Origin: a virus
Lineage: Duplodnaviria; Heunggongvirae; Uroviricota; Caudoviricetes
Virus record (IMG/VR): IMGVR_UViG_2537561824_000013
Direction: 5' to 3' (one strand)
DNA length: 39,229 nucleotides
Part shown: one piece after another, positions 2,687-39,229 of the stretch
Layout: every line of letters begins with the position of its first letter
Numbering within the stretch: position 1 is the stretch's first letter
The notes under the pieces: model-generated
Seen by the model: only the letters and a program-made list of their open reading frames with translations
Databases searched by the model: none
What the model was told of the DNA's origin: nothing
Translations under genes and position numbers: made by a program

Positions 2687-3259
2687 TTACATTTCAGGTT
2701 GCGTTATGACAGTCCCAACAGGGTGATAGCGGTAGATCGTTGACAGTCCAATATCATAGATAATTGCCAGCCGCTTTCTGTCATACCCTTTCTGGAGCAA
2801 TCTTGCGATCTGCTCATGCTGCTCCTTCGTCAGTTTCGGGCGACGTCCTCCAACTCTTCCTTGTGCTCGCGCAGCAGCCAGTCCAGCCAGCGTGCGCTCA
2901 ACTATCAGTTCACGCTCCATTTCTGCCAGTGCACCCATCATATGAAAAAAGAACCTTCCCATCGGAGTGCTGGTATCGATTGAATCCGTCAGACTGCGAA
3001 AATTGACACCTTTTGCGCGTAGCTCTTCTGTGAGAGCAATGAGGTGTTTCATTCTTCTACCCAACCGATCCAGCTTCCAGACCACCAATGTATCCCCTCT
3101 TTTAAGGCACTTTAAAGCGCGTTTCAGGCCTGGTCGTTCCGACTTGGTTCCGCTCATTTTGTCCTCAAAAATCTGTTCACATCCTGCGCACATTAATGCA
3201 TTGCGTTGCAAATCTGTGTTTTGGTCATTTGTTGACACACGTATGTAGCCAATCAGCAT
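2687..3259 (-). CDS. gin: Site-specific DNA invertase, Gin/Hin/Pin/Cin family serine recombinase
   Basis: ATG at complement of 3257-3259 preceded by AAGGGAG; product starts MLIGYIRVSTNDQNTDLQRNAL with the catalytic Ser context and ends in an HTH (GLSTIYRY); the 233-aa track ORF starting at GTG 3388 is an over-extension. Confidence 0.9.
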   Translation of the reverse strand: MLIGYIRVSTNDQNTDLQRNALMCAGCEQIFEDKMSGTKSERPGLKRALKCLKRGDTLVVWKLDRLGRRMKHLIALTEELRAKGVNFRSLTDSIDTSTPMGRFFFHMMGALAEMERELIVERTLAGLAAARAQGRVGGRRPKLTKEQHEQIARLLQKGYDRKRLAIIYDIGLSTIYRYHPVGTVITQPEM

Positions 3260-3325
3260 TAAAAATACTCCCTTTTGAGTGGTTAAAGTACTGAGATAAT
3301 GTGGGGAGGATTTGAGAGATAAACG

Positions 3326-3545
3326 TTGGTTTGGGGGAAGGCTCGGCGCTGCCCGTTGGTGTACCTGTTCCGTGGCCCACTGCCACACCGCCAGCAGGCT
3401 GGTTAAAGTGCGACGGGCGCGCCTTTACAAAAGAACAATATCCTGTTCTGGCCAGAGTCTACCCGACCCTCCGTCTTCCCGATTTGCGCGGTGAGTTTAT
3501 CCGTGGATGGGACGACGGGCGAAAAGTGGATACAGGGCGCGATCT
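3326..3545. repeat. Recombination repeat A at the 5' border of fiber cassette 1; inverted relative to repeat C
   Basis: About 220 bp nearly identical to 3765-3985 and, as reverse complement, to about 5150-5370; homology starts at TTGGTTTGGGGGAAGG, which resembles a gix/hix half-site (GGTTT...GGAA). Confidence 0.6.
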
Positions 3546-3759
3546 GCTTTCACGGCAGGATGGTACAAGTTTTTCTCATTACGCAGGTAATTTTGACATT
3601 GGGTCTGGTCATTCAATCAATAACTATGACCAAATCCTTGACAACCAACCTGGATTCTCCCGTTTTTCATTTGCAGGTCCTTCGCGAGGCGATGGGGTTA
3701 ATTATGTGACCATTCGTCCCCGTAACATTGCGTTTAATTACATCGTAAGGGCGGCATAG
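3331..3759 (+). CDS. Alternative tail-fiber C-terminal cassette 1 (promoterless and start-less exon, currently unexpressed orientation)
   Basis: Frame opens at TTG with no ATG or RBS; the first ~70 aa (GEGSALPVGVPVPWPTATPPAGWLKCDGRAF...GWDDGRKVDTGR) are identical to the matching segment of the expressed fiber, then diverge; ends in the conserved ...RPRNIAFNYIVRAA. Confidence 0.6.
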   Translation: MGEGSALPVGVPVPWPTATPPAGWLKCDGRAFTKEQYPVLARVYPTLRLPDLRGEFIRGWDDGRKVDTGRDLLSRQDGTSFSHYAGNFDIGSGHSINNYDQILDNQPGFSRFSFAGPSRGDGVNYVTIRPRNIAFNYIVRAA

Positions 3760-3764
3760 AAACG

Positions 3765-3985
3765 TTGGTTTGGGGGAAGGCTCTGCATTGCCTGTTGGTG
3801 TACCGGTTCCATGGCCCACCGCCACACCGCCAGCAGGCTGGTTACAGTGCAACGGAGCTACGTTCACCAAAGAACAATATCCTGTTCTGGCCAGAGTCTA
3901 CCCGACCCTCCGTCTTCCCGATTTGCGCGGTGAGTTTATCCGTGGATGGGACGGTGGTCGCAAGGTTGATACCGGGCGTGCGCTA
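3765..3985. repeat. Recombination repeat B at the 5' border of fiber cassette 2; direct with A, inverted relative to C
   Basis: Same shared sequence as repeat A, starting AACGTTGGTTTGGGGGAAGG. Confidence 0.6.
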
Positions 3986-4231
3986 CTTTCATTTCAGGAA
4001 GGGACTATCGTATCCGGTTTTGATGATAATGATACCGGAGATATCAGTTCGCTCGGCTCTACACAATACGGATTTGGTGACGCTTTAACCTCTAATCAAC
4101 TGGGGGTCTTAAATGGCAAAAAGTGGATATTTGATGCATCCTCTAAAGGTGCACAAAGATATGACTGGTGGGCTTATGTATCAGCTCGCCCCCGCAATAT
4201 CGCATTTAACTATATCGTGAGGGCGGCGTGA
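3770..4231 (+). CDS. Alternative tail-fiber C-terminal cassette 2 (promoterless and start-less exon)
   Basis: Frame opens at TTG; shares the N-terminal ~70 aa with cassette 1 and the fiber, then has a unique distal domain; same C-terminal NYIVRAA. Confidence 0.6.
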   Translation: MGEGSALPVGVPVPWPTATPPAGWLQCNGATFTKEQYPVLARVYPTLRLPDLRGEFIRGWDGGRKVDTGRALLSFQEGTIVSGFDDNDTGDISSLGSTQYGFGDALTSNQLGVLNGKKWIFDASSKGAQRYDWWAYVSARPRNIAFNYIVRAA

Positions 4232-4237
4232 TACCGT

Positions 4238-4852
4238 TCAGCCGGCAAGCGCCAGTGGCGCTTCCGGCCAGCTGATTTCAGGTGCCTTGCTGATATCCAG
4301 TGCGTTCAGCTCGTCGATATAATCCAGCACGGCGTTCAGTTTTGCCGTTTCTTCTGGTTTCAGACTGCGACCAGCACGCAGTTTGAGGTTGATAAGATCG
4401 ACGGACGCCATCGCCTGTTTCACCCGTTGCTGGCGTTGCTGTCTGGCAACCTCCAGTTCTGCGGCTCGCTGCCGTTCAGTATCGGTTACCCACGCCTCAC
4501 CGTTCCAGGTATCCCATGGCGTGGCTGGCTGTTTTGTGGTGGTGTCCGCCGGGTAATCACCCGGTTGGGTAATCAGAACGGGGTTACCGTTCTCCGTGCT
4601 GTATACCGTCTCGCCGCGGTGATCAGGCACATGCTCCCACCCGTTCAGCGTGGCAGTCCGGCAAACCACGTAACCCGAAATTGCTTCCGGCGGTGCATCG
4701 GCGCACGAATGTGCCGGAGTACCCACCCCAAGGGCGAGATACTCCACAGAGGATGAGGTGTATTCCCGGGTTTCCTCGTCATAGTGATATACAGTGATAT
4801 CGCCCGCTACAGTGGCGATACCGTTTTCATCCAGAACTGCAGTGTTACTCAT
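4238..4852 (-). CDS. Tail fiber assembly protein (Mu U / P2 G / Tfa-like chaperone)
   Basis: 204-aa ORF whose ATG overlaps the fiber stop codon; product has the N-terminal conserved region typical of Tfa proteins; its position right after the fiber gene matches Mu S-U. Confidence 0.75.
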   Translation of the reverse strand: MSNTAVLDENGIATVAGDITVYHYDEETREYTSSSVEYLALGVGTPAHSCADAPPEAISGYVVCRTATLNGWEHVPDHRGETVYSTENGNPVLITQPGDYPADTTTKQPATPWDTWNGEAWVTDTERQRAAELEVARQQRQQRVKQAMASVDLINLKLRAGRSLKPEETAKLNAVLDYIDELNALDISKAPEISWPEAPLALAG

Positions 4853-5149
4853 TAAACTGCCCTCACAATGTAATTAAGTGCAATGCTACGGGGTCTGACA
4901 GTGATACCCTTCGCATACCCGCTTCTGATAGAGGTCAGAATAGTAGCCTGCATACCATTGTCTGACATTGCCACGACAGGATCGCTGAATGTTGTCCCGT
5001 CCGGCATTTTAAAGCTGCCCTCACGAAGGTCTGTAATGGAATCTTCATTGTTGAATCCCATGCCGACTATCCCCGAGGTTCCCGTAGTGTCCTGGTTATA
5101 ATAATCCAGCATTGCTGTTCTTAACAGCGTTGCCCCTTGTGCGGACAGC

Positions 5150-5370
5150 AACTTACGTCCTGTATCAACTTTGCGCCCGTCGTCCCATCCACGGATAAAC
5201 TCACCGCGTAAATCGGGAAGACGGAGGGTCGGGTAGACTCTGGCCAGAACAGGATATTGTTCTTTTGTAAAGGCGCGCCCGTCGCACTTTAACCAGCCTG
5301 CTGGCGGTGTGGCGGTGGGCCACGGAACAGGCACACCAACGGGTAGCGCCGAGCCTTCTCCTAAACCAAG
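5150..5370. repeat. Recombination repeat C inside the expressed fiber gene; inverted relative to A and B
   Basis: Reverse complement reads CTTGGTTTAGGAGAAGGCTCGGCGCT... and is nearly identical to repeats A and B over about 220 bp. Confidence 0.6.
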
Positions 5371-5499
5371 GTAATTGAGGACATCTTTTATACTGCCCTT
5401 AGCGATAATAGCGCGACCAATAGCTGTAAGGGTTGCCAGCTCTGCGCGGTCTGCTCCGGTAAAATAAGGCAACCGATCTGCTGCAGTGGCAAGTCCTGC

Positions 5500-6000
5500 C
5501 AGAGCAGTGAGCGTGGCATCTGCCGGTTGTTTTCCGTTTGCCAGATCGTATGCAGCCTTGACCGCTTTCGGTGTGGCGGCCAGTATTTCAGACGTGCTGT
5601 TGATGGCACTGCTCAATTGTACGGTGCCTTTTGCCGTCAGCGAGGCAGCAGGCACTCCCGTTATCTGACTCCACGGGTGAGTGTGGCTGACGGGCGCCTT
5701 GCCGGCTGCAAGGTCGTATGCAGCCTTGACCGCCTTCGGCGTGGCAGCCTCAGTTTCTGATTGACTGTCCGTGGCGCTGCTCAGTTGTACGGTGCCTTTT
5801 GCCGTCAGCGAGGCAGCAGGCACTCCCGTTATCTGACTCCACGGGTGAGTTGGCTGACGGGGGCCTTGCCGGCAGCCAGGTCATATGCAGCCTTGACGGC
5901 CTTTGGTGTGGCGGCCAGCGTTTCAGAGGTGCTGTTGGTGGCACTGCTCAGTTGGGTGAACCCCTTAGCTGTCAGTGTCGCGTCCGGGTGGTTACGGGAA
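5500..6000. repeat. 168-bp tandem coding repeats (about three copies) in the tail fiber gene
   Basis: Each copy encodes ...SLTAKGTVQLSSATDSxSEtxAATPKAVKAAYDLAAGKAPVSHTHPWSQITGVPA...; the nucleotide copies are nearly identical. Confidence 0.8.
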
Positions 6001-7859: not shown

Positions 7860-8197
7860 AGCAGCTCCTGAGTCCGGGTCTGTCCGTCTGAGCCTTTCCA
7901 GCTCACCCGGAGCGTAAGATGTTCGCCGTCGACGGCGGGTTTAACTGACATAAGCTGGCAGCGGGGCTCCCAGCGCCGGATGGCATCGACGGATTCGCGC
8001 ACCACATGCGGAATGGCCCGGTCTACAGGCCAGTCGATATAAAGATGCAGATTGCTGCCGAACTCCGGGCGATGCGGGTCGCTGCCGCGGGGAGTCCGCA
8101 GGATAATTTGAATCGCCTGCCGGATATCATCCAGCCCCCGGACAATTTCGCCGGGAGCCTGCAGGGTCGGTTGCCAGAATACTGAGGTTGTTTTCAT
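7850..8197 (-). CDS. Baseplate wedge protein, GPW/gp25 family (Mu gp46-like)
   Basis: 115-aa ORF with ATG at 8197; size and synteny between spike and J-like genes. Confidence 0.7.
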   Translation of the reverse strand: MKTTSVFWQPTLQAPGEIVRGLDDIRQAIQIILRTPRGSDPHRPEFGSNLHLYIDWPVDRAIPHVVRESVDAIRRWEPRCQLMSVKPAVDGEHLTLRVSWKGSDGQTRTQELLWR

Positions 8198-8251
8198 GGG
8201 GGCAGTATTGCCCCCGTGCGGGAACGCTGATATTAAAGGCGTTTAAAAAGC

Positions 8252-8848
8252 TCAGTGGGAGTGGTGGCTGGAGTTTTCGCCATCAGACAACATACTGCCC
8301 GTGGCATGGGCATTCCCTTTAATCTCGATATTGCCATGGATGGTCGCGGTAACACCTTCACCACCAGAACCCGCCATGCCTCCTTCGTAAATCAGCTTAC
8401 CCCTGACACGCAGATCTCCGGTAAGTTCGGTTTCCGGTGCGTCAATCGTGGCTTTCTGTGTTTTCAATACCACATCAGCACCACACTCAATGACAATATG
8501 CTCAATGCCGCCCCGGATGGTCAGAGTGTGCGTCTTCCGGTTGTAGCTGTACTCTGCACCATCAGCAAACCGGGTTCCCCGGATATTTTTGTCACTGAAC
8601 GGTGGTTTATCGACGTCTGAATACACCGCGCCCAGAATAACACCATCCTCGCCGTTGGCATCGAGCAGCACCTCAACCTGCTCCCCCACGTCAGGGAGCC
8701 AGTAATCTTTGTTATCCTGGGTATTGCGCTGCAGCACGTTAAGCCAGTTTGTGCGCAGGTTATCGCATTCAGGCAGACGAACGCGGGCCTGAACCCTGTC
8801 GGCATCAACGGCACTGACCGTACCGACCTGACGAGTGACACCAGTCAT
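8252..8848 (-). CDS. Baseplate spike / assembly protein V (Mu gp45-like)
   Basis: 198-aa ORF with ATG at 8848 overlapping the upstream stop; conserved position; His-rich C-terminal tip (SSHHSH). Confidence 0.75.
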   Translation of the reverse strand: MTGVTRQVGTVSAVDADRVQARVRLPECDNLRTNWLNVLQRNTQDNKDYWLPDVGEQVEVLLDANGEDGVILGAVYSDVDKPPFSDKNIRGTRFADGAEYSYNRKTHTLTIRGGIEHIVIECGADVVLKTQKATIDAPETELTGDLRVRGKLIYEGGMAGSGGEGVTATIHGNIEIKGNAHATGSMLSDGENSSHHSH

Positions 8849-29192: not shown

Positions 29193-29296
29193 ATCGCCCC
29201 ACAGGAATGCGCTGTGAGCCGACCAAGGTTCAGTCAGTCTCGCGAGACCTGACCAGACTGCCATATTTTTTAATAATTGTAAAAGGCTTGCAGATT

Positions 29297-30061
29297 ATGA
29301 AAATGCAGACATTACCCATCGTGCCGTGGATTGGTGGCAAACGCCGCCTTGCAAAACACATTCTGCCGCTGTTTCCGGCGCATGAATGTTATGTGGAGCC
29401 GTTTTGTGGGGCAGCAGCGCTCTATTTTCTTAAGACACCCGGCAAGATCGAAGTCATCAATGATATCAACGGTGAACTGGTGAATCTGTACCGGGTGGTA
29501 AAGCATCACCTGGAAGAATTTGTCCGCCAGTTCAAATGGGCGCTGGTCAGCCGTCAGATCTACAAATGGCTGCAGATCACCCCGGAAGAAACACTGACGG
29601 ATATCCAGCGTGCGGCACGGTTCTACTACCTTCAGAAGCAGGCGTTTGGCGGCAAGGTGGCAGAGCACAGCTTCGGTACCTCCACCACATCCCCGCCACG
29701 CTTCAACCTGCTACGTATTGAAGAAGAACTGTCAGCGGCACACCTGCGGCTTTCCAGAACAGTCATAGAACACATGGACTGGCAACAGTGCATTGAGCGT
29801 TATGATCGTCCGCACACGCTGTTCTACTGCGACCCACCGTACCTGGGTACGGAAGGCTATGGTGTGGATTTTCCTGAAGGGAACTACTCGCGGCTGGCAG
29901 AGCTGGCCCGGTGCATCAGAGGAAAAATGATAATTTCGGTGAACGACATCCCGCAGATGCGCGAGGTGTTCACTGGACTGAACATACAGACAGTGAATAT
30001 CAACTACAGTCTGGCGGGTAAACCCACGCCGCGCCGTGAACTGCTAATCTGCAACTTCTGA
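29297..30061 (+). CDS. DNA adenine methyltransferase, Dam-like (D12 class N6-adenine MTase)
   Basis: ATG at 29297; product MKMQTLPIVPWIGGKRRLAKHILP... has the Dam-type N-terminus, an AdoMet motif (EPFCGAAALYF) and the catalytic DPPY motif; specificity cannot be read from sequence. Confidence 0.85.
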   Translation: MKMQTLPIVPWIGGKRRLAKHILPLFPAHECYVEPFCGAAALYFLKTPGKIEVINDINGELVNLYRVVKHHLEEFVRQFKWALVSRQIYKWLQITPEETLTDIQRAARFYYLQKQAFGGKVAEHSFGTSTTSPPRFNLLRIEEELSAAHLRLSRTVIEHMDWQQCIERYDRPHTLFYCDPPYLGTEGYGVDFPEGNYSRLAELARCIRGKMIISVNDIPQMREVFTGLNIQTVNINYSLAGKPTPRRELLICNF

Positions 30062-30177: not shown

Positions 30178-30534
30178 TCAGCCTGCGATTTTTCCTGGTT
30201 TTGGCTGAGTATAGAATCGCCCAATCTCAAGAAATGAGCGTTGTTGGTCTGGTGTCATGTCGTCAAAAGTATCTATTAGTTTTTGTTTTTCTGGGGAAAT
30301 TTGATTCTGGTTTCTAGTCATACCATCTGTGCTCATTCCAGTGAGCAACCAATTTACATCAACATTAAACTCTTGATGCATCTTTAACAGAAACTCCCCT
30401 CCAGGCATCGCCTTTCCATTTTCAATCTGACTGATACCACCATTAGAAATACCTAAACGAGCTGCAAATTCTCTCTGGTTCAACCCTGCTTTCTTCCTCA
30501 CAGAAATAACGCGCTCTCCTATATCTTTGCTCAT
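30178..30534 (-). CDS. Prophage immunity repressor, XRE-family HTH protein
   Basis: 118-aa ORF divergent from the early operon; HTH segment LNQREFAARLGISNGGISQIENGK; its start codon lies inside an operator half-site. Confidence 0.8.
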   Translation of the reverse strand: MSKDIGERVISVRKKAGLNQREFAARLGISNGGISQIENGKAMPGGEFLLKMHQEFNVDVNWLLTGMSTDGMTRNQNQISPEKQKLIDTFDDMTPDQQRSFLEIGRFYTQPKPGKIAG

Positions 30535-30575
30535 AAAAGTGAATCTCTATCTTGATATGCTCATAATTATGAGCA
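30528..30575. promoter_or_regulatory. Candidate operator/divergent promoter region between the repressor and the early operon
   Basis: Perfect 18-bp palindrome TGCTCATAATTATGAGCA at 30558-30575 plus an extra half-site TGCTCATAA at 30528-30536 overlapping the repressor ATG. Confidence 0.55.
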
Positions 30576-30627
30576 ATAATCTAACACATATAAGGCAAAC
30601 ATCATTGCATCAACAAAGGAGACAACG

Positions 30628-30816
30628 ATGACTGCAGAACAAGTCAAAGCTCTCTTCCGCCAGCGCGGGATCACTTTCACCCGCTGGGCAGAAGAAAACG
30701 GCTACAACCGCAATGAGGTATACCGCGTTCTCAACGGGCAGACCAAAGCCCGTTACGGTAAATCCCATGAAATCGCCGTGAAGTTGGGACTGAAATCAAC
30801 AGCTCAGGCGGCCTAA
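30628..30816 (+). CDS. Small DNA-binding early regulator (functional position of Mu Ner / lambda Cro)
   Basis: ATG at 30628 with AAAGGAGA upstream; 62-aa product with an HTH-like segment (YNRNEVYRVLNGQTKARYG); first gene of the rightward operon opposite the repressor. Confidence 0.55.
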   Translation: MTAEQVKALFRQRGITFTRWAEENGYNRNEVYRVLNGQTKARYGKSHEIAVKLGLKSTAQAA

Positions 30817-30862
30817 ATATTTTGAGTCTTTGTAAAAGGTTATCACATATCGCAAAAGAGGT

Positions 30863-31177
30863 ATGCAGATGAGTAAGACGAATGTTTCAAGCTCCGGCAG
30901 TCGCATCCTCCGGGTACTCAAAGCGCTGCGCGGTCATGCCCTGAACGGTATTTCTAACGGTGAACTGGCGACAGCACTGCACGAGTCACCGGCAAACATC
31001 AACCGGGCACTCAACACCCTCATTGAAGAAGGGCTGGCTCTGAAACTGGAGAACGGACGTTTTGCACCGGGCATCCAGTTACTGCAGATCGCCATGGCCC
31101 ACAGTAACGAGATGGCACGTGCACAGGATCGTATTAACGAAATTAACCAACGTGTCATTTCAGGTAGTCGTTTGTAA
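30863..31177 (+). CDS. Putative winged-helix DNA-binding protein
   Basis: 104-aa ORF with ATG at 30863; HTH-like segment ISNGELATALHESPANINRALNTLIEEGL. Confidence 0.45.
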   Translation: MQMSKTNVSSSGSRILRVLKALRGHALNGISNGELATALHESPANINRALNTLIEEGLALKLENGRFAPGIQLLQIAMAHSNEMARAQDRINEINQRVISGSRL

Positions 31178-31187
31178 GGAGTAATCA

Positions 31188-32108
31188 ATGGGACGTACCA
31201 AATCACCGATTAACACTGAACTGAACGCCGATGTACCGCTGTCGGATGATCTCAACGTCAGCCTGAATGCCATGACACAGCATCGCATGGAGATCATGCA
31301 GCAGTTTGGTGATGGACTGCCTTATGAACGTGAACGCATCGTTCACGAAGCACGTTTTTATATGGCGCAGAGTGCTGAATCTATGTTGGAAGCGGGTAAG
31401 CGGCTGATCATCTTAAAAGAAAATGAACCGCATGGTGATTTCACAAATATTCTGGAAAACGACCTCGGATTAGCACCACAGGTAGCTCGTCGCATGATGC
31501 AGGCCAGCGTGAAATTTCTCGGCAATGGAGATGAACAGCCAAAACGCTCAGCGCTGAGCGTTTTGGGAAAAACCAAGTTATATGAACTGATGGTTCTGGA
31601 TGACGAAGAACTCGACGCATTAGCTGATGGTGGAACCGTCGCCGGTGCAACGCTTGATGATATTGATCGCATGACCAGCCGCGAACTGAAGGCCGCCCTG
31701 CGTGAAGCGCGCGAAACCAACGCAGCTCAGCAACAGGTGCTTGCCGGAAAGGACGAAAAAATCAACGAACTGGCCACAAAACTGGAGAAGAAATCGCGCC
31801 TGCAACCTCCGCCGCCAGACGAAGAACTGAAAAAATTGCGGGCGGAAGTGACGGCATTAGCGGTTGAGGCCGAATCGGCTATCGCCGTCCGGCTGTCCAG
31901 TGTTTTTGAGACCCTGTGTGAATACTGCACCAAAAACATGATCGATACCCCCAGAGATTTCATGGCCGGTCTGGTCTGCCAGATTGAACGCAGTGTTCAT
32001 GCATTACGTGAGACGTTTGACCTTGAGGCCGCTCCATCGGGTAACGATGCCCCCGCCTGGCTGACCGAACCGGAACCTGAAATCAACCGACCGGAGGATA
32101 TGCAGTAA
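31188..32108 (+). CDS. Hypothetical early protein (306 aa)
   Basis: ATG at 31188 with TAAGGAG upstream; acidic helical protein; no family recognised. Confidence 0.5.
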   Translation: MGRTKSPINTELNADVPLSDDLNVSLNAMTQHRMEIMQQFGDGLPYERERIVHEARFYMAQSAESMLEAGKRLIILKENEPHGDFTNILENDLGLAPQVARRMMQASVKFLGNGDEQPKRSALSVLGKTKLYELMVLDDEELDALADGGTVAGATLDDIDRMTSRELKAALREARETNAAQQQVLAGKDEKINELATKLEKKSRLQPPPPDEELKKLRAEVTALAVEAESAIAVRLSSVFETLCEYCTKNMIDTPRDFMAGLVCQIERSVHALRETFDLEAAPSGNDAPAWLTEPEPEINRPEDMQ

Positions 32109-32425
32109 TGAATACGAATAACACACAAAATACCCTGATGGACAGCCCGGAGGCACTGGGGCACGCACTGTGTAATCTGCTGCCGGAGATGGTGCAGGGT
32201 TTCCGCGTGGTGACCCCTTCCGGTGAAATCTGCGTACCCGCACAGGAGACGCACCCGTTTGTACTGACGATGGAGGTGATGCTGATGCAGCAGATAAGAC
32301 GTCTGCAGAATCAGTCAGCATTACGCCCGGTAGTTGCACCGCAACCGGTAAATACCGTGGTGAAAACCTGCGATGGCGAAACACTGTGCGACCTCGCCAG
32401 AAAAATTGCCGCCAGAATCGGATAA
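32108..32425 (+). CDS. Hypothetical early protein (105 aa)
   Basis: ATG at 32108 in a TAATG overlap with the preceding stop. Confidence 0.45.
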   Translation: MNTNNTQNTLMDSPEALGHALCNLLPEMVQGFRVVTPSGEICVPAQETHPFVLTMEVMLMQQIRRLQNQSALRPVVAPQPVNTVVKTCDGETLCDLARKIAARIG

Positions 32426-32440
32426 CAGGGAAGACAAGCT

Positions 32441-34210
32441 ATGACCCCGGCACTGACTGAAAAACTGGTTGAAACAGCCCGCGCGGCACGTGACGCGGGG
32501 CATGGTAAACGCGGTGCAATATACGACGCTGCCTGTGCTGAACTTGGCATGTCCCGCGCCACTCTGCTGCGCAGGCTGAAGGAGGTATCTGTGACTGATA
32601 AACGCAAAAAACGCGCCGATGCCGGGCGCAGCGCCCTGACCCGCGACGAAGCCGCGCTGATATCTGCCACACTGCGTGAGGCCACCCGCAAGAACGGTAA
32701 GCGTCTCTATTCCATCGCAGATGCAGTGGAAACCCTGCGGGCTAACGGCTTTATCACCGCAGGCAGAACAGATGAAACCACCAGTGAGTTTTTCCCGTTG
32801 TCTGAAGATGCCATCAGCCGTGCTCTGCGTAACTATGGCCTGCACCCGGAACAACTGGATGCCCCTGCACCACATACCGAAGTGGCCAGTCTGCATCCCA
32901 ATCATGTCTGGCAGATTGACGCCTCACTCTGCACGCTTTACTACCTGAGCAATGGACATAAAGGGCTGCAGGTGATGGACAGCGCGAAGTTCTACAAGAA
33001 CAAGCCCGCTAACCTTGCCCGTATCGCCAGTGACCGCGTGTGGAGTTACGAGATTACCGACCATGCCAGCGGCTGGATTTACGTTGAGTATGTGACGGGC
33101 GCGGAATCAGGTGAGAACCTGTGTTCTGTGCTTATCAACGCCATGCAGGAGCGTGGCGGCGCAGACGTGCTGCACGGCGTGCCGAAAATACTCTATCTCG
33201 ACCCCGGCTCGGCAAACACCGCGGGTATGACGAAAAACATGTGCCGCTCACTGGGCATCGACCTGATAGCGCACAAGCCGCATAACGCCCGCGCCACCGG
33301 ACAGGTGGAAAAGGCGCGTGACATTATCGAACGCAAGCTGGAGCCGGGTCTGAAGTTCCGGCCGGTTCACAGTCTGGAAGAACTCAACGCGCTGGCCGCG
33401 AAATGGCGCAGCCACTTTAACGCCACGGCTGTTCACAGCCGCCACGGTAAAACCCGCACGGATATCTGGCTGAAGATTACTGCTGAGCAGCTGAAAAAAG
33501 CGCCTTCCGTTGAGGTATGTCGTGAACTGGCTGTGGCGGCACCAGAACTCCGCAAAGTCACGCCAAAACTTCGTGTCTCGTTCCGGGGCACTGAATTTGA
33601 CGTATCAACGGTACCGGGCGTACTGGTTGGTGAAAAACTGATGATTACCCGTAACCCATGGCGCAGCGATGTGGCACAGGTGGTTCTGACCGGTGAGGAC
33701 GGCCACGAGACGTTCTTCCTGGTCGAAGAGGTCAGAAAGAACGAGTTTGGCTTTGCTGAAGGCGCGGCGGTATTTGGCGAAAGTTACAAAGCCCTGCCGG
33801 AAACCCCGGCACAGATGGCGGCAAAAGAAACCGAAGCGCTGGTTACCGGTACAGACAACGCCGCAGATGCAGCCGCCGCACGCAAGGCGAAGGCGCTGCC
33901 GTTCGGCGGGCGGCTTGACCCGTATAAACATATCGACGACACCACACTTCCGGCCTATATGCCGAAGCGTGGTCAGGCCTCTGACGTACGCGGGCCGCGC
34001 ACTGAACAACGTCCCATGACTCATGTGGAGGCCGCGAAAGCCCTGCGCGATAAGTTCAGCGCCGACGGCCTTACCTGGACGCCGGAACATTACCGCCAGT
34101 TAACGGCACAGTACCCGGACGGCGTACCGGAAGCCGCACTGGATGAAGTCATGGCCACGCTGACCACACCGGCCCGCAGCAGTGTTATCAGCATTGTTAA
34201 CGGCAACTGA
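32441..34210 (+). CDS. DDE transposase (integrase-core/rve-type; functional equivalent of MuA)
   Basis: 589-aa ORF with ATG at 32441; N-terminal HTH, then candidate catalytic triad in ...VWQIDAS..., ...LYLDPGSAN... and ...TGQVEKA... with about 35 aa between the second D and the E; followed by the B-like ATPase. Confidence 0.85.
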   Translation: MTPALTEKLVETARAARDAGHGKRGAIYDAACAELGMSRATLLRRLKEVSVTDKRKKRADAGRSALTRDEAALISATLREATRKNGKRLYSIADAVETLRANGFITAGRTDETTSEFFPLSEDAISRALRNYGLHPEQLDAPAPHTEVASLHPNHVWQIDASLCTLYYLSNGHKGLQVMDSAKFYKNKPANLARIASDRVWSYEITDHASGWIYVEYVTGAESGENLCSVLINAMQERGGADVLHGVPKILYLDPGSANTAGMTKNMCRSLGIDLIAHKPHNARATGQVEKARDIIERKLEPGLKFRPVHSLEELNALAAKWRSHFNATAVHSRHGKTRTDIWLKITAEQLKKAPSVEVCRELAVAAPELRKVTPKLRVSFRGTEFDVSTVPGVLVGEKLMITRNPWRSDVAQVVLTGEDGHETFFLVEEVRKNEFGFAEGAAVFGESYKALPETPAQMAAKETEALVTGTDNAADAAAARKAKALPFGGRLDPYKHIDDTTLPAYMPKRGQASDVRGPRTEQRPMTHVEAAKALRDKFSADGLTWTPEHYRQLTAQYPDGVPEAALDEVMATLTTPARSSVISIVNGN

Positions 34211-34220
34211 GGAGGGAAAC

Positions 34221-35387
34221 ATGCTGGTACTGAAGCAGCAACTGAAAGAGGCCCGTATTCCACAGGCGGTGGTGGCGAGAGCTGTCGATGTTTCTGAGGC
34301 CACGCTGGCCCAGATTGTGAATCATAACGCGTGGCCCCGCACCAGCCCCGGAGAAGTGCGCCGGCGTCTTGCGTCCTGGCTGGAAAGTCAGGGGATTGAT
34401 ACAACGAAGAGTTTTGATGCTGTACAGGGCGCGGCCACGCCCCGTACAGCGGGTACCACAGATAAAACGAGCCTCAGTGAGGAAGAGAATATGTTACTCA
34501 AAAAACAGGTGTTATTTCCAGCAACCAAAAAAGCGTTTGGTCTTTTCCGTGACCCGTTCGCCGACGAAGCCATGCAGGGTTCTGATGATGTGTTCACCAC
34601 CCCGGATATTCGCTACGTGCGTGAGGCGTTGTACCAGACAGCCCGTCATGGTGGGTTTATGGCCGTCATCGGTGAGTCCGGTGCGGGTAAATCCACGCTG
34701 CGCCGCGACCTGACTGAACGTATCAACCGCGAGAATGCGCCGGTAATTGTTATCGAGCCATACATCATCGCTATGGAAGACAACGATGTGAAAGGGAAAA
34801 CCCTGAAGGCAGCAGCGATTGCCGAAGCCATTATCAGTACCATCGCACCACTGGAAAGCATCAGACGCAGTCAGGACGCCCGCTTTCGCCAGTTGCATCG
34901 CGTCCTGAAAGACAGCAGCCAGGCGGGGTTCAGCCACGTTCTGGTGATTGAGGAGGCCCACAGTCTGCCCATTCCGACACTGAAACACCTCAAACGCTTT
35001 TTTGAGCTGGAGTCCGGTTTCAAAAAACTGCTGTCCATCGTGCTGATTGGCCAGCCGGAACTGGCGACAAAACTGTCTGAACGCAATATGGAAGTCCGTG
35101 AAGTCGTTCAGCGCTGTGAGGTGGTCGAACTTCTGCCTCTGGACAATAACCTTGAAGAGTTTCTGACGTTCAAACTGCAACGGGCCGGTAAACAACTGAC
35201 GGACATTATGGACGCCAGCGCAGTGGATGCCATACGTGCCCGCCTGAGCAATCCGGGAAGTCATCGTAAAAATATGGTCAGCCTGCTGTATCCGCTGGCC
35301 GTCAGTAACCTGGTAATAGCCGCCATGAATCTGGCCGCTGAAATCGGGGTTCCACAGGTCAACGCTGACGTTGTCAAAGGGGTTTAA
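34221..35387 (+). CDS. Transposition helper ATPase (AAA+; MuB/TniB-like)
   Basis: ATG at 34221 with GAGGAGGGAAAC upstream; Walker A GESGAGKST and Walker B-like VLVIEEAH; immediately downstream of the transposase. Confidence 0.8.
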   Translation: MLVLKQQLKEARIPQAVVARAVDVSEATLAQIVNHNAWPRTSPGEVRRRLASWLESQGIDTTKSFDAVQGAATPRTAGTTDKTSLSEEENMLLKKQVLFPATKKAFGLFRDPFADEAMQGSDDVFTTPDIRYVREALYQTARHGGFMAVIGESGAGKSTLRRDLTERINRENAPVIVIEPYIIAMEDNDVKGKTLKAAAIAEAIISTIAPLESIRRSQDARFRQLHRVLKDSSQAGFSHVLVIEEAHSLPIPTLKHLKRFFELESGFKKLLSIVLIGQPELATKLSERNMEVREVVQRCEVVELLPLDNNLEEFLTFKLQRAGKQLTDIMDASAVDAIRARLSNPGSHRKNMVSLLYPLAVSNLVIAAMNLAAEIGVPQVNADVVKGV

Positions 35388-35389
35388 TA

Positions 35390-35659
35390 ATGAAATCCAC
35401 CACAGGTATCAACCAGCAAATCAGCAAAGTGCAGTCAGCCATTATGGCGCTTAAGGCGACGAACACGGATGTACAAAGCATCACCATCAGGGGTAACAAA
35501 CCTGTCATCCGCGTTTCCCGGAGTGCGCATTGCATGCGCATGCTTGAGCAGGGAAAGGCCTGTTATCTGTATACCGGTCATGACCACAGGGGACATTTCC
35601 GTCAGGGCGTTTTCGAACTGCACGGCTGTCGCGTCGTGTGGCCGGAATCTTTGTGGTAA
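35390..35659 (+). CDS. Hypothetical early protein (89 aa)
   Basis: ATG at 35390 in a TAATAATG arrangement with the B stop. Confidence 0.45.
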   Translation: MKSTTGINQQISKVQSAIMALKATNTDVQSITIRGNKPVIRVSRSAHCMRMLEQGKACYLYTGHDHRGHFRQGVFELHGCRVVWPESLW

Positions 35660-35686
35660 TCAGCACAACAGGAGGAGTCATAAAAT

Positions 35687-36217
35687 ATGGCAAAAAGTAC
35701 AAAAGGGGCAAAACGTATCAAAGCCGCAGCAGCACTCTGGGTGCCGGGGACACGCGAAGAGGTCATTGAGGGAATCAGACTGCTTGGTGACGCGCAACGT
35801 GAACTGGTCAGGGCTGAAACAGAAATGAATGACACCATTGGCGACATCACTGCACGTTATGCCCCGCTCACCGAGAGCCTGAAAAAACGCATGGCCGAAC
35901 TGCAGTCCGGTATCCAGACATGGTGTGAGGCGCACCGTGATGAACTGACCGGCAACGGGAAGGTGAAGTTCGCTAACCTCACCACCGGCGAGGTGCAGTG
36001 GCGAAACCGTCCGCCGTCAGTCAGCATTCGCGGGGCGGATAATGTCATTGAACTGCTGAGACGTCTGGGGCTTGAGCGCTTTATTCGTGTAAAAGAGGAA
36101 ATAAATAAAGACGCTATCCTGAATGAAAAAGAGGCCGTGAAAAATATTCCCGGTATTTCCATTAAAAGCGACATTGAGGATTTTTCAATAATTCCTTTTG
36201 AGCAGGATGTGCAGTAA
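35687..36217 (+). CDS. gam: Gam-like host-nuclease inhibitor (DNA end-binding protein)
   Basis: 176-aa product closely matches phage Mu Gam as I remember it (e.g. ...WCEAHRDELTGNGKVKFANLTTGEVQWRNRPPSVSIRG... and C-terminal ...DFSIIPFEQ...). Confidence 0.8.
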   Translation: MAKSTKGAKRIKAAAALWVPGTREEVIEGIRLLGDAQRELVRAETEMNDTIGDITARYAPLTESLKKRMAELQSGIQTWCEAHRDELTGNGKVKFANLTTGEVQWRNRPPSVSIRGADNVIELLRRLGLERFIRVKEEINKDAILNEKEAVKNIPGISIKSDIEDFSIIPFEQDVQ

Positions 36218-36314
36218 ACACACCACGTTAATTATTTAATAAAAACATTTTCTTTTTTATTCCGACGTCAGCGCCGCGGGCTTCTGCACGCCGGAAACAG
36301 AGGAGAATTAAATC

Positions 36315-36509
36315 ATGATATTTAAATGTATTCAGTGCGAGAGGGATATAACAGCCCTGCGTTTTCACAGCGCCATCGCCGTGATGTCCGGTAAATACCA
36401 CATCCCTGCGGTACGCGTCACCCTGGTCTGCCCGTACTGCAGCCAGCATTTTTCGGCAGACGTGCCCGTCATGGAATTCTCCCGCCCTGACAGGGAGGAC
36501 TCGCAATGA
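36315..36509 (+). CDS. Small zinc-ribbon protein (CxxC...CxxC)
   Basis: 64-aa ORF with Cys pairs CIQC and CPYC; stop overlaps the next gene's start. Confidence 0.45.
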   Translation: MIFKCIQCERDITALRFHSAIAVMSGKYHIPAVRVTLVCPYCSQHFSADVPVMEFSRPDREDSQ

Positions 36510-36778
36510 TTACCCCACAGGAAGCACGACAGCGCACCCGAACCCTTGTTGAACACTATGTCAACGAGTGTGAATGCCGCGACCTCACCGATGTGAAGCA
36601 CGTCCTGACGGCGCTAATCAGCATGACCGCTCAAGCCATTGTGGCGACCAACGGAAAGGCGGCTGCCCTGCAGGTACTGGTGAACACACTAACCCACACG
36701 GCAGCGCATGAGGTGCCGTACCGGATGGAAACCACTGCAGAAGGCGGCCTGCACATCACCGTCAGCCGGAAGCACTGA
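36506..36778 (+). CDS. Hypothetical early protein (90 aa)
   Basis: Translationally coupled ORF; no motif recognised. Confidence 0.4.
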   Translation: MITPQEARQRTRTLVEHYVNECECRDLTDVKHVLTALISMTAQAIVATNGKAAALQVLVNTLTHTAAHEVPYRMETTAEGGLHITVSRKH

Positions 36779-36787
36779 GGGCGCGGC

Positions 36788-37084
36788 ATGACACGGAACA
36801 CCATACTCACCCGCACCGCCCTCTACCGTCTGGCCCTGCAGCGTTTCGGGCCGGACGCACAGGCCCTGAAACTGACAGAAGAGGCCGCTGAACTGGCGGC
36901 CAGTGCTGCCCGCAATCTGAACGGACAGGGCAGCGAAAGCGACCTCGCGGCAGAGCTGGCAGACGTGGAAATCATGACAGAGCAATTGCGCCTTCAGGGG
37001 ATGGACCGGCTGATTGACTTCCACAAACAGAAAAAACTGGAACGTCTGGCTGCACGACTGGGCGTGATTTACACGAACGAGTAA
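36788..37084 (+). CDS. Possible MazG-like nucleotide pyrophosphohydrolase-domain protein
   Basis: 98-aa product with paired acidic-helix motifs (LTEEAAELAASA ... LAAELADVEIMTEQL) like small phage MazG proteins; assignment is weak. Confidence 0.4.
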   Translation: MTRNTILTRTALYRLALQRFGPDAQALKLTEEAAELAASAARNLNGQGSESDLAAELADVEIMTEQLRLQGMDRLIDFHKQKKLERLAARLGVIYTNE

Positions 37085-37098
37085 CCGGGAGGCATTCA

Positions 37099-37314
37099 AT
37101 GGCTGACATACTCAGGGAAATCACCGCATGGATACTGATTCTTACTGGCCTGGCGACATGCCTCAGTGCGGGGGCAGCCCTGGCTGCCCTGCTGATGCAC
37201 ATAACAACACAGTGGTTATGGGAAAAGCTTAAAGCAGCATACAGCCTGAAAGAGCTGTCCGACGCTGTCCGGGCATGGAAACGGCAGAAAAATACCGGAG
37301 ATACAGAACAATGA
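37099..37314 (+). CDS. Small membrane protein (71 aa)
   Basis: One clear hydrophobic helix (ITAWILILTGLATCLSAGAALAALLM). Confidence 0.35.
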   Translation: MADILREITAWILILTGLATCLSAGAALAALLMHITTQWLWEKLKAAYSLKELSDAVRAWKRQKNTGDTEQ

Positions 37315-37994
37315 CAGACCAGAATAAACACATTGAGAAACTGAAAAAGTTGCTGGCGCTGGCCGCATCCGGCAACCCGCACGAGGCCGCTCTGGCACTG
37401 TGCCGAGCCCGTAAACTGATGGATGTTCACGGCATCACACATTCCGACATTGCTATGAGTGATATTGATGAAACCATCAGTCACTACTGGCCGACAGGCA
37501 GTCTCCGTCCACCGCGCTACATGCTGGGCCTGATGAACATCATCCGCGAGGTATTTGGTGTTAACTCCATCATTCACCCCGGCACGCATCCGTCTGTGGG
37601 GTTCTACGGCAACCGGGAACGTGCGGCACTGGCTGCATACACCTGGGAAGTGCTGGCCCGTCAGCTGAAAAAGGCGCGTCAGCAGTATATCAGTGCACAG
37701 AACAAAAGAATAAAAACCGCCACCCGCACCAGCCGTGGAGACCAGTTTGCCGAAGGCTGGGTGCTGGCCGTTATCAGTGAAATACAGTCCTTTGCCCTGA
37801 CCGATGATGAGCGTGAACTGATGCAGCAGTGGCTGGAACATAAATACCCGCAGACGCAAACCACCAGGGCGCGTAAACCGGGAAGAAGCCGCAATGGCGA
37901 CGCCTCGCGCTATGCGGGGTTTCGTGAAGGGCAGAACGTCAGACTGCACCGCCCGGTCAGTGGGCAGGAACAACAGAAACTGGAGGCCAGATGA
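37311..37994 (+). CDS. Hypothetical early protein (about 227 aa)
   Basis: ATG at 37311 (product starts MTDQNKHIEKLKKLLALAASGNPHEAA); the track start at 37275 overlaps the preceding ORF. Confidence 0.5.
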   Translation: MTDQNKHIEKLKKLLALAASGNPHEAALALCRARKLMDVHGITHSDIAMSDIDETISHYWPTGSLRPPRYMLGLMNIIREVFGVNSIIHPGTHPSVGFYGNRERAALAAYTWEVLARQLKKARQQYISAQNKRIKTATRTSRGDQFAEGWVLAVISEIQSFALTDDERELMQQWLEHKYPQTQTTRARKPGRSRNGDASRYAGFREGQNVRLHRPVSGQEQQKLEAR

Positions 37995-38221
37995 TTACGC
38001 TATCAGGTAAAAGCCGGAAATTAAAAGCCTGCCGAATATCTGCCAGATACCTTTTTGCCCGCGCCTTTTTTAAGAACGTCAGGCCGGGGATCACAATTGG
38101 TGTTATTGCCGGACGCGAACAGGTTGAAAAATACATGTCAGGTGCATGGTGGAATAACGACCCTGTCATTGCTGCCCGTAATATTCATATCGAATGGGGA
38201 GGTATTCAGAATGACTACTGA
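37991..38221 (+). CDS. Hypothetical early protein (76 aa)
   Basis: ORF with an ATGA-type overlap to the preceding gene. Confidence 0.35.
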   Translation: MITLSGKSRKLKACRISARYLFARAFFKNVRPGITIGVIAGREQVEKYMSGAWWNNDPVIAARNIHIEWGGIQNDY

Positions 38222-38417
38222 AACCATTGTCTGTTTTCTTTTCTGGTATATGTACGCAGGATCATGCAGCGCAAGACTTCATCGTTCCCTGGGCTATGGC
38301 AGGCACTACGACACCGCGCATTACATCCTGTACATGACCGCCGTCATGTTGTTCTGGCCAGTCACCCTGCCAGCTGCAACCGACATTGTTGCCGACAGAC
38401 TGAAAAAAAGGAGATGA
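38211..38417 (+). CDS. Small membrane protein (68 aa)
   Basis: ATG at 38211 with GGGGAGG upstream; two hydrophobic segments. Confidence 0.4.
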   Translation: MTTETIVCFLFWYMYAGSCSARLHRSLGYGRHYDTAHYILYMTAVMLFWPVTLPAATDIVADRLKKRR

Positions 38418-38418
38418 T

Positions 38419-38868
38419 ATGCAGAAAAAACGCCTGATACAGCTTATCCATATTGCCCGTAATGAACTGGGTATGGATGAAGACACCTACCGCCAGATGT
38501 TACAGGGGCTGACCGGTAAAGCCTCAACCAAAGGAATGGATACCACACAACTAAACTGCGTGCTGGAATCCATGAAAAAGAAAGGCTTTCGCGTTAAACC
38601 AGCCAGAAAAGCCAGCTCCGGTTTACCGCTGGATAACCATCCGCAGTCCAGGAAAATTCGTGCGCTATGGCTTGAAATGGCTGCTGCCGGCATTGTTCGT
38701 GACCGTTCAGAAAATGCATTAGCGAGGTGGATCAAGCGGGAAACGGGCATCAGCGCCCTGCGCTGGCTCAGTACTGAACAGGCAAGCAGTGTTATTGAGA
38801 AACTGAAGAAGTGGCAGCGCAGAGCTGCGGGAGTCAAACATGAGCGACCTGAATCAGTTTCGAAGTAA
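38419..38868 (+). CDS. gemA: GemA-like early regulatory protein (Mu gp16 family)
   Basis: 149-aa product starting MQKKRLIQLIHIARNELGMDEDTYRQ, resembling Mu GemA; lies immediately upstream of mor as in Mu. Confidence 0.7.
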   Translation: MQKKRLIQLIHIARNELGMDEDTYRQMLQGLTGKASTKGMDTTQLNCVLESMKKKGFRVKPARKASSGLPLDNHPQSRKIRALWLEMAAAGIVRDRSENALARWIKRETGISALRWLSTEQASSVIEKLKKWQRRAAGVKHERPESVSK

Positions 38869-39229
38869 GGGGCCGGAACTCCTGGTGGAACTGGCACAGC
38901 ATCCCTCTGAGACCGTTCGCGAGATTATTGATATTGAGCCCGAAGTTGCCGACCAGATTGGTCAGGCCGTCGCGAACCGAATGATGCAGGTCTGGGGCGG
39001 GCAAAACGTTTATTTCCCGATGGGCATGGTATGGAAGGTCAGTCAGCGCGACCGGGAAATCTTCAGGGAGTTTAACGGACGCAACCACCACGAACTGGCC
39101 CGCAAATTTGGTGTTTCGCTTCAGTGGGTCTACAGCGTGGTTAAGCGGGTAAGAAAAGAAGAACTGGATCGGATGCAGGGCAAGCTATTTGCTGATGAAC
39201 CCGATGCAGATACGGAGAAAAAAGAGTAA
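38840..39229 (+). CDS. mor: Mor-like middle transcription activator
   Basis: 129-aa product, the same length as Mu Mor, with a C-terminal HTH (HHELARKFGVSLQWVYSVVKRVR); the stop codon is the last three bases of the window. Confidence 0.8.
   Translation: MSDLNQFRSKGPELLVELAQHPSETVREIIDIEPEVADQIGQAVANRMMQVWGGQNVYFPMGMVWKVSQRDREIFREFNGRNHHELARKFGVSLQWVYSVVKRVRKEELDRMQGKLFADEPDADTEKKE

Follow-up and report, generated by a model that had tools for sequence, protein, structure and literature searches.

Small early genes between the B-like ATPase and GemA of a BcepMu-type prophage as a probable counterpart of the semi-essential region of Mu

We analysed a block of small genes at positions 35390-38417 of a 39,229-nucleotide stretch of viral DNA (IMG/VR record IMGVR_UViG_2537561824_000013; the whole stretch is referred to below as the window). 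The block is exactly the span of the genes that lie between a B-like transposition ATPase and GemA. Very probably it forms the accessory, distal end of the early operon in a BcepMu-type transposable prophage, and the counterpart of the semi-essential kil-gam-gemA region of phage Mu. The gene families in and around the block suggest a Kil ... Gam ... GemA-Mor frame common to Mu, filled with a mosaic of accessory genes. The region is an ordinary one: it provides a list of candidates, not a discovery, and the current picture of Mu-like phages is unchanged. An earlier prediction made from the DNA letters (the original prediction) had placed the block at the correct coordinates and described it as ten small early genes, candidate cargo for host takeover or anti-defence. 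Nine genes were found here, all on the plus strand and numbered g1 to g9 (Table 1), and RefSeq calls the identical nine.

Judged by their translation signals, conservation and pattern of substitution, the nine genes are real. A GGAG-type Shine-Dalgarno site is present for all nine, and every one of them has a PHROG family match (E values of 1e-34 to 1e-77). The tight coupling of the open reading frames (ORFs) proposed earlier was evident in four overlapping junctions, with ATGA overlaps at g3/g4, g6/g7 and g7/g8 and an overlap of 11 nt at g8/g9. The flanking gaps are equally short (2 nt from B to g1 and 1 nt from g9 to gemA). A tenth gene was sought in the cluster and none was found, the 97-bp gap between g2 and g3 having no ORF. 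Non-synonymous change was far below synonymous change in the eight genes that have diverged homologues (all but g6), which indicates purifying selection. The ratio of the two rates (dN/dS) in comparisons with diverged homologues was 0.13 for g7, 0.14 for g5, 0.18 for g8 (Klebsiella homologue), 0.30 for g3 and 0.36 for g4; over different comparisons it ranged from 0.02 to 0.04 for g2, 0.12 to 0.30 for g3 and 0.3 to 0.5 for g4. For g1 and g9 the proportions of non-synonymous (pN) and synonymous (pS) differences from diverged homologues were 0.19 versus 0.80 and 0.40 versus 0.80, respectively. Within E. coli, g8 had 5.8 non-synonymous versus 1.2 synonymous changes, which are too few to interpret.

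The genes were already in RefSeq and PHROGs as hypothetical proteins, and the annotation gains made here (a link to Kil for g1, a MazG fold for g5 and a KH-like DUF7168 for g7) are modest. Even so, the view in the original prediction that everything except Gam was unrecognisable was too pessimistic, as g1, g5 and g7 could be placed in families.

The window consists of host DNA (uspC, otsA, otsB) followed by a complete prophage. The minus strand carries its structural genes, and the plus strand, at the right end, carries its early operon; similarity to phage PhiKM and the RefSeq annotation identify it as a BcepMu-like transposable prophage. Positions 35390-38417 were 98.6% identical to Escherichia phage PhiKM (genus Bcepmuvirus), which has a uropathogenic E. 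coli source. The cluster was carried by 629 of 5426 complete E. coli genomes, 619 of which covered at least 80% of the interval. The prophage copies examined occupied different chromosomal sites, and two of them adjoined truncated host genes (paaZ and an arylamine N-acetyltransferase gene), which fits the expectation for a transposing phage.

To place the interval in a wider context, related loci were collected with the B-like ATPase as bait. This identified 80 loci from other species of Enterobacterales, Pasteurellaceae and Burkholderiales, with B proteins 53-94% identical to the query, and interval statistics were taken from the 75 in which GemA was found. The B-to-GemA interval in these varied from 309 to 5362 bp and contained about 98 protein families. 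Based on this range of lengths and families, we consider that the interval is a mosaic accessory slot and a hot spot of gene turnover, like the kil-gam-gemA region of Mu. Searches by tblastn inside the interval identified g1 and Gam in 31 loci each, g7 in 25, g5 in 16, g3 and g9 in 14 each, g8 in three, g4 in one and g6 in none, and the full E. coli gene set was found in no other species among the 75 loci. In addition, Gam (PF07352) and DUF3164 (PF11363) shared the slot just after the Kil-like gene and never co-occurred in these prophages (L008-L087), a mutual exclusion which suggests they are functional alternatives.

The first gene of the cluster, g1, appears to be a remote member of the Kil family. 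An exhaustive profile search with g1 retrieved 85 cluster representatives at E values up to 1e-3, from which a 68-member alignment was made. Comparison of this profile with Mu Kil in hhalign gave a probability of 79.7% and an E value of 1.5e-5, and covered 70 of the 74 Kil residues; features common to the g1 family and Mu Kil include a P-x-I strand and a C-terminal G-C-x-[VI]-[VI]-W. Six of the 68 family members matched the Kil family phrog_2743 (best E 3.9e-5) and five matched the Kil family phrog_6381 (best E 1.3e-5). In the reverse direction, Mu Kil matched the PHROG of g1, phrog_2041, weakly (E 0.2). When the g1 profile was searched against the 351 ORFs of Mu, JBD24, a Pasteurella Mu-like phage and BcepMu, its top matches were BcepMu gp07 (2.8e-5), Mu Kil (1.9e-4) and JBD24 gp10 (2.6e-3), with the fourth at 0.27. 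The first two each follow B directly in their genomes, and JBD24 gp10 lies just ahead of gam. Similarly, the g1-like genes of the related loci that carry them are the first or second gene after B. Together, the profile matches, the PHROG cross-matches and the identity and positions of the top three ORFs are the grounds for our reading of g1 as Kil-family, a relationship that is remote but consistent. A passage in PMC3961180, citing Waggoner et al. 1989, describes Mu kil expression as turning E. coli spherical, and connecting the "HI_1482" family with Mu Kil provides this widespread orphan family with a phenotype that can be tested.

The Gam assignment of the original prediction held for g2, which matched Pfam PF07352 with 138.7 bits against a cutoff of 28.3 (E 1.9e-40; residues 23-169 on profile positions 1-148 of 149) and was 61% identical to Mu Gam. 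By family, g2 is Gam, an inhibitor of host nuclease (RecBCD).

The structure model of g5 supports a MazG-type all-alpha nucleoside triphosphate (NTP) pyrophosphohydrolase fold with an intact acidic motif, with membership assigned at the superfamily level only. The acidic metal-binding motif of MazG is E-E-x-x-E ... E-x-x-D, and g5 carries E31, E32, E35, E56 and D59, which fit it. In an alignment of 26 homologues E31 and E61 were invariant, E35 and D59 were at least 90% conserved and E56 was more variable. The family is large (1842 matches at E values up to 0.01) and some of its members are named "NTP pyrophosphatase (non-canonical NTP hydrolase)" by their source. The best NCBIfam match of g5, to hisE, was below threshold (14.3 versus 42.7). 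The earlier suggestion of a possible MazG-like domain was therefore borne out as to fold and motif, while the Pfam threshold was not reached. The MazG-like protein Atd1 of Pectobacterium phage PcCB7V has been shown experimentally to degrade guanosine tetraphosphate (ppGpp) and to protect against TIR effectors (bioRxiv 10.1101/2022.06.09.495361), and on this precedent a host-takeover role for g5 is plausible. Atd1 and g5 are alike in being small, phage-encoded, single-domain MazG-like pyrophosphatases with twin acidic motifs. A tblastn search of a phage collection with g5 gave no match in a Pectobacterium phage, an indirect check in which the Atd1 sequence itself was not compared and the presence of PcCB7V in the collection was unconfirmed; this places the relationship to Atd1 at the superfamily level at most. 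With its MazG fold, g5 is a candidate manipulator of nucleotide pools or alarmones.

Enzymes of the nucleotide pool were seen repeatedly in the slot: the g5-type MazG, BcepMu gp06 (L007 2668-3105) and, in Pasteurellaceae, a YfbR-like HD 5'-deoxynucleotidase (family 21; loci L049, L052, L057, L058 and L087). We considered g5 as a relative of BcepMu gp06 and rejected this, as sequence comparison found no detectable similarity between the two, which belong to different MazG subfamilies.

The two domains of g7 were identified in their usual order, PF10979 (DUF2786) with 39.3 bits against a cutoff of 23.9 at residues 20-56 of the long ORF, and PF23771 (DUF7168) with 90.3 against 25.5 at residues 58-201. 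The structure model (predicted local distance difference test, pLDDT, 86; predicted template modelling score, pTM, 0.77) shows a helical hairpin at the N terminus along with long helices and a beta-alpha-beta-beta-alpha core. The core is predicted to be KH-like; the order in the KH type I fold is beta-alpha-alpha-beta-beta-alpha. The GXXG loop is absent between the strand at residues 52-57 and the helix at 69-82 (HYWPTGSLRPPRYM), and there was no conserved Gly pair there in an alignment of 29 sequences. Conserved basic residues include R117, R123, K132, R133, K135 and R142. Phages of many unrelated kinds, temperate as well as virulent, share this architecture (Sinorhizobium phiM12, Delftia PhiW-14, and Mycobacterium, Gordonia and Bacillus phages), none with a named product, and a literature search on the function of DUF2786/DUF7168 returned incidental mentions and no paper assigning a function. 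DUF2786/DUF7168 is one of the broadly distributed phage domains without a known role. Within transposable phages, g7 homologues directly precede GemA even in such distant members as JBD24 and a Pasteurella phage.

The 64-residue CxxC...CxxC protein of the original prediction is g3, in which C5, C8, C39 and C42, together with P40, were invariant in 13 diverse homologues. Family clustering placed g3 homologues in 29 related loci, and the minimal Photorhabdus prophage checked (L034) has kept nothing but its g3 homologue between B and GemA. About 430 bp of AT-rich non-coding DNA (8174-8597) lies ahead of the zinc-ribbon homologue in this relative. Two identities were considered for g3 and discarded. 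Homology to Mu gp6 (phrog_3786) had an hhalign P value of 4e-4 over 38 columns, driven by the Cys knuckles, and none of the 13 members of the g3 family matched phrog_3786. A Com-like translational activator was dropped as no Com-family model was among the Pfam matches.

For g4 and g8, searches of Pfam, PHROG and the PDB detected no relatives of known function, and g4 had no counterpart when compared with every Mu early protein. Annotators of phage KP12 equate the g8 homologue with S. Typhi STY1594. The g4 gene, carried by 612 E. coli genomes, is the most divergent gene of the cluster within E. coli (87% nucleotide identity), and the jump in identity from 99% to 87% between neighbouring cluster genes points to frequent recombination. 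The g4 allele of strain 510016 (L090 2617-2889) is an intragenic chimera, with an N-terminal half like that of Phi06_2974B and a C-terminal half like that of the window. Two small membrane proteins had been proposed. One of these, g6, is clearly a membrane protein by prediction (Kyte-Doolittle 19-mer mean 2.02, residues about 8-33), and the other, g9, is probably one at most, with two hydrophobic segments and a hydropathy of 1.52, just under the usual threshold. The g6 gene was present in 533 of the 629 cluster-bearing E. coli genomes and was cleanly missing in strain 510016. The window allele of g9 was found in 464 of the 629, being replaced in about a quarter of copies. Being patchy and fast-changing, g4, g6, g8 and g9 are better candidates for host-specific cargo.

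Scans of the cluster for promoters and terminators identified no internal excess, with counts at or below shuffle expectation. The sole plus-strand promoter-like site in 30500-39229 is the sigma-70-like sequence between the repressor gene and the first early gene (Table 1), in a scan whose site counts do not exceed those of shuffles. As a candidate early promoter, this site would control transcription of the entire operon and with it the cluster. Based on its position and on the lack of internal signals, the cluster is most simply interpreted as the distal part of the early operon. An Rfam scan of the cluster gave zero matches and a repeat scan nothing useful. A 22-nt direct repeat, 91% identical, was seen at 37332-37353 (g7) and 38794-38815 (gemA); both copies encode IEKLKK and the repeat is probably due to chance.

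From the observed gene reality, family and fold assignments, synteny and mosaicism we infer the following activities and timing of expression. On derepression, transcription from the early promoter would cover the transposase, the B-like ATPase and the cluster, whose nine small proteins would prepare the host for replicative transposition. As a Kil homologue, g1 may perturb the growth or shape of the host cell, and g2 would cap DNA ends against RecBCD-type nucleases. Hydrolysis of nucleoside triphosphates or alarmones by g5 could reshape or sanitise the nucleotide pool. Binding of nucleic acid or of a protein partner by g3 and g7 might serve a conserved accessory step. The inner membrane would be the location of g6 and g9, and g4 and g8 would be lineage-restricted add-ons.

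Several observations weigh against the cluster being a counterpart of the Mu region with these roles. The relationship of g1 to Kil is remote (approximately 19% identity and an hhalign probability of about 80%), and Mu Kil itself has no known target. Four of the nine genes (g4, g6, g8 and g9) had no functional lead from the searches made. In the case of g5, all Pfam matches were below gathering thresholds, the best being PRA-PH at 14.5 bits against a cutoff of 21.3, and sequence and profile searches gave no sequence-level relative in the PDB. PDB sequence and profile searches with g1, g3, g4, g7 and g8 likewise found no significant match. The host-takeover role proposed originally was right in kind: it is supported directly for g1 and g2 by family membership, and for g5 it is plausible only.

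The rival readings differ mainly in which genes they regard as directed at the host. It is possible, though we regard it as doubtful, that several ORFs (g4, g6, g8 and g9 are the likeliest, with g5) inhibit E. coli defence or nucleotide second-messenger immunity, a proposal that overlaps with that of an accessory region. Counter-defence genes are typically expressed early. By its family Gam acts against nucleases, Atd1 provides a precedent for a MazG-like protein, and the slot turns over fast between species and also within E. coli, as seen in the g6 indel, the replaced g9 allele and the 87% identical, chimeric g4. Against this, scans of PHROGs, Pfam and NCBIfam linked none of the nine proteins except Gam to a named anti-defence family (no dedicated anti-defence library was searched), and comparison of all nine with the PADLOC defence profiles gave nothing better than E 0.026. 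The similarity of g5 to Atd1 is at the superfamily level at most, and dN/dS was below 1 in comparisons with diverged homologues; seven substitutions in g8 were the one exception to an absence of arms-race signs. Moreover, g1, g3 and g7 are widely conserved in transposable phages, and the range of g7 extends far outside that group. Conserved accessory functions account for such breadth better than counter-defence cargo specific to one lineage. We would similarly put only limited weight on at least one uncharacterised protein proving to be a new host-directed factor (g4, g6, g8, g9, or g5 acting on an immune nucleotide or alarmone) or, as a variant, on g7 being a general nucleic-acid-binding phage factor.

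Another tentative reading, which we likewise regard as doubtful, is that g3 and g7, and perhaps g8 and g9 next to GemA, are dedicated cofactors of transposition, DNA replication or middle-gene regulation and are not host-directed. The 29 loci with g3 homologues, the sole retention of this gene in the minimal Photorhabdus interval, the location of g7 homologues next to GemA in JBD24 and a Pasteurella phage, and the conserved basic residues and KH-like fold of g7 are all consistent with such cofactors. However, neither gene is universal: 50 of the 75 related loci lack g7, and by BLAST neither g3 nor g7 has a homologue in BcepMu or Mu. Virulent phages of many phyla that do not transpose share the g7 architecture, which is therefore not specific to transposition. 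A role in lysogenic conversion appears improbable. In that scenario the small membrane proteins and orphans would be morons expressed from the prophage to the benefit of the lysogen, for instance in superinfection exclusion, and it draws on g6 and g9 having a form common for exclusion proteins and on the prophage being very common in clinical E. coli. Yet these genes are inside a same-strand early operon with overlapping stop and start codons and without promoter-like or terminator-like sites of their own, and they should consequently be kept repressed in a lysogen. For the cluster as a whole we prefer the interpretation as an accessory, distal part of an early operon, as in Mu. Its relevance lies in prevalence: the prophage is in approximately 12% (about one in nine) of complete E. 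coli genomes, including clinical lineages of sequence type 131 (ST131), such that a large share of the induction events of pathogenic E. coli would involve expression of its early genes.

Table 1. Features of the cluster and of the surrounding early region, with positions in the window
Feature	Position	Strand	Assignment or remark
Repressor ORF	30178-30534	-	Divergent from early operon
Sigma-70-like promoter, TTGATA-17-AATAAT	30552-30580	+	Predicted; 10/12 matches; between repressor gene and first early gene
B-like transposition ATPase (ExeA family)	34221-35387 (longest ORF from 34182)	+	Upstream cluster boundary; homologue of BcepMu gp08
g1, 89 aa	35390-35659	+	Putative remote Mu Kil homologue; RefSeq "HI_1482 family"; phrog_2041
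g2, 176 aa	35687-36217	+	Gam; DNA-end-binding host-nuclease inhibitor by family
Intergenic gap, AT-rich, 97 bp	36218-36314		Only sizeable non-coding stretch in cluster; no Rfam, promoter or terminator call
g3, 64 aa	36315-36509	+	Predicted four-cysteine zinc ribbon (C5, C8, C39, C42); phrog_3401
g4, 90 aa	36506-36778	+	Orphan; phrog_3691
g5, 98 aa	36788-37084	+	Predicted single-domain MazG-like all-alpha NTP pyrophosphohydrolase
g6, 71 aa	37099-37314	+	Predicted single-pass membrane protein; phrog_3958
g7, 227 aa	37311-37994	+	DUF2786 N-terminal helical hairpin, DUF7168 KH-like beta-alpha-beta-beta-alpha core (model) and basic helices
g8, 76 aa	37991-38221	+	Basic orphan; phrog_3681
g9, 68 aa	38211-38417	+	Probable two-segment membrane protein; phrog_6436
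GemA (Mu gp16 family)	38419-38868	+	Pfam PF06252, E 8.3e-41; RefSeq; downstream cluster boundary
Mor	38840-39229	+	Follows GemA

Other parts of the element also attracted attention. A Dam-like DNA adenine methylase gene (29207-30061, plus strand) is located just beyond the divergent repressor gene, outside the cluster. Phage DNA methylases are known to block host restriction, which makes this gene no worse an anti-restriction candidate than the small ORFs of the cluster. At about 2690-6000 an invertase-type recombinase gene adjoins tail-fibre and tail-fibre-assembly genes and several fragmentary tail-fibre pieces, an arrangement that resembles an invertible, G-segment-like host-range switch. 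In strain TUM1857 (NZ_CP135709; L001 4833-5998, L089) the cluster is 100% identical to that of the window, while in RefSeq a frameshift or an internal stop is recorded for the B-like ATPase, the portal gene and two tail genes. The broken genes in this strain suggest that some prophage copies are decaying with their small early genes still intact.

Among the closest known systems for g5 are the solved small stand-alone MazG proteins, Sulfolobus SSO3215 (1vmg), the integron protein iMazG (2q5z) and B. subtilis YpjD (2gta), from which g5 differs in having no sequence-profile match to any PDB chain. For the cluster as a whole, the Pseudomonas Mu-like phages (JBD24 and the D3112 group) have a 67% identical Gam, a g7 homologue (36% identical) immediately before GemA and the Kil-family gp10 before Gam. 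However, they are of a siphovirus lineage with another type of transposase and B, and their remaining small genes are unrelated. BcepMu has the same architecture at the genus level, its gp03-gp07 occupying the slot between the ExeA-type B protein (gp08) and GemA (gp02); gp07 is a probable member of the g1/Kil family (hhalign probability 95%) and gp06 is a MazG-type pyrophosphatase by annotation. It differs in having DUF3164 in place of Gam, plus HU and the small gp03, and in lacking g3, g4, g6, g7, g8 and g9.

The equivalence to the semi-essential region of Mu (kil, gp6-gp9, gam, gp11-gp15, gemA, mor) that was put forward in the original prediction proved to be positional and partly homologous. 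Both regions are on the early strand between B and gemA/mor, both appear to have a Kil-family gene directly after B, and both have Gam, an ending in GemA and Mor, and small coupled genes. Unlike in Mu, where gp6-gp9 intervene, Gam here immediately follows the Kil-like g1. Beyond Kil, Gam, GemA and Mor there is no detectably shared gene, and Mu is without MazG-like or DUF2786/DUF7168 genes.

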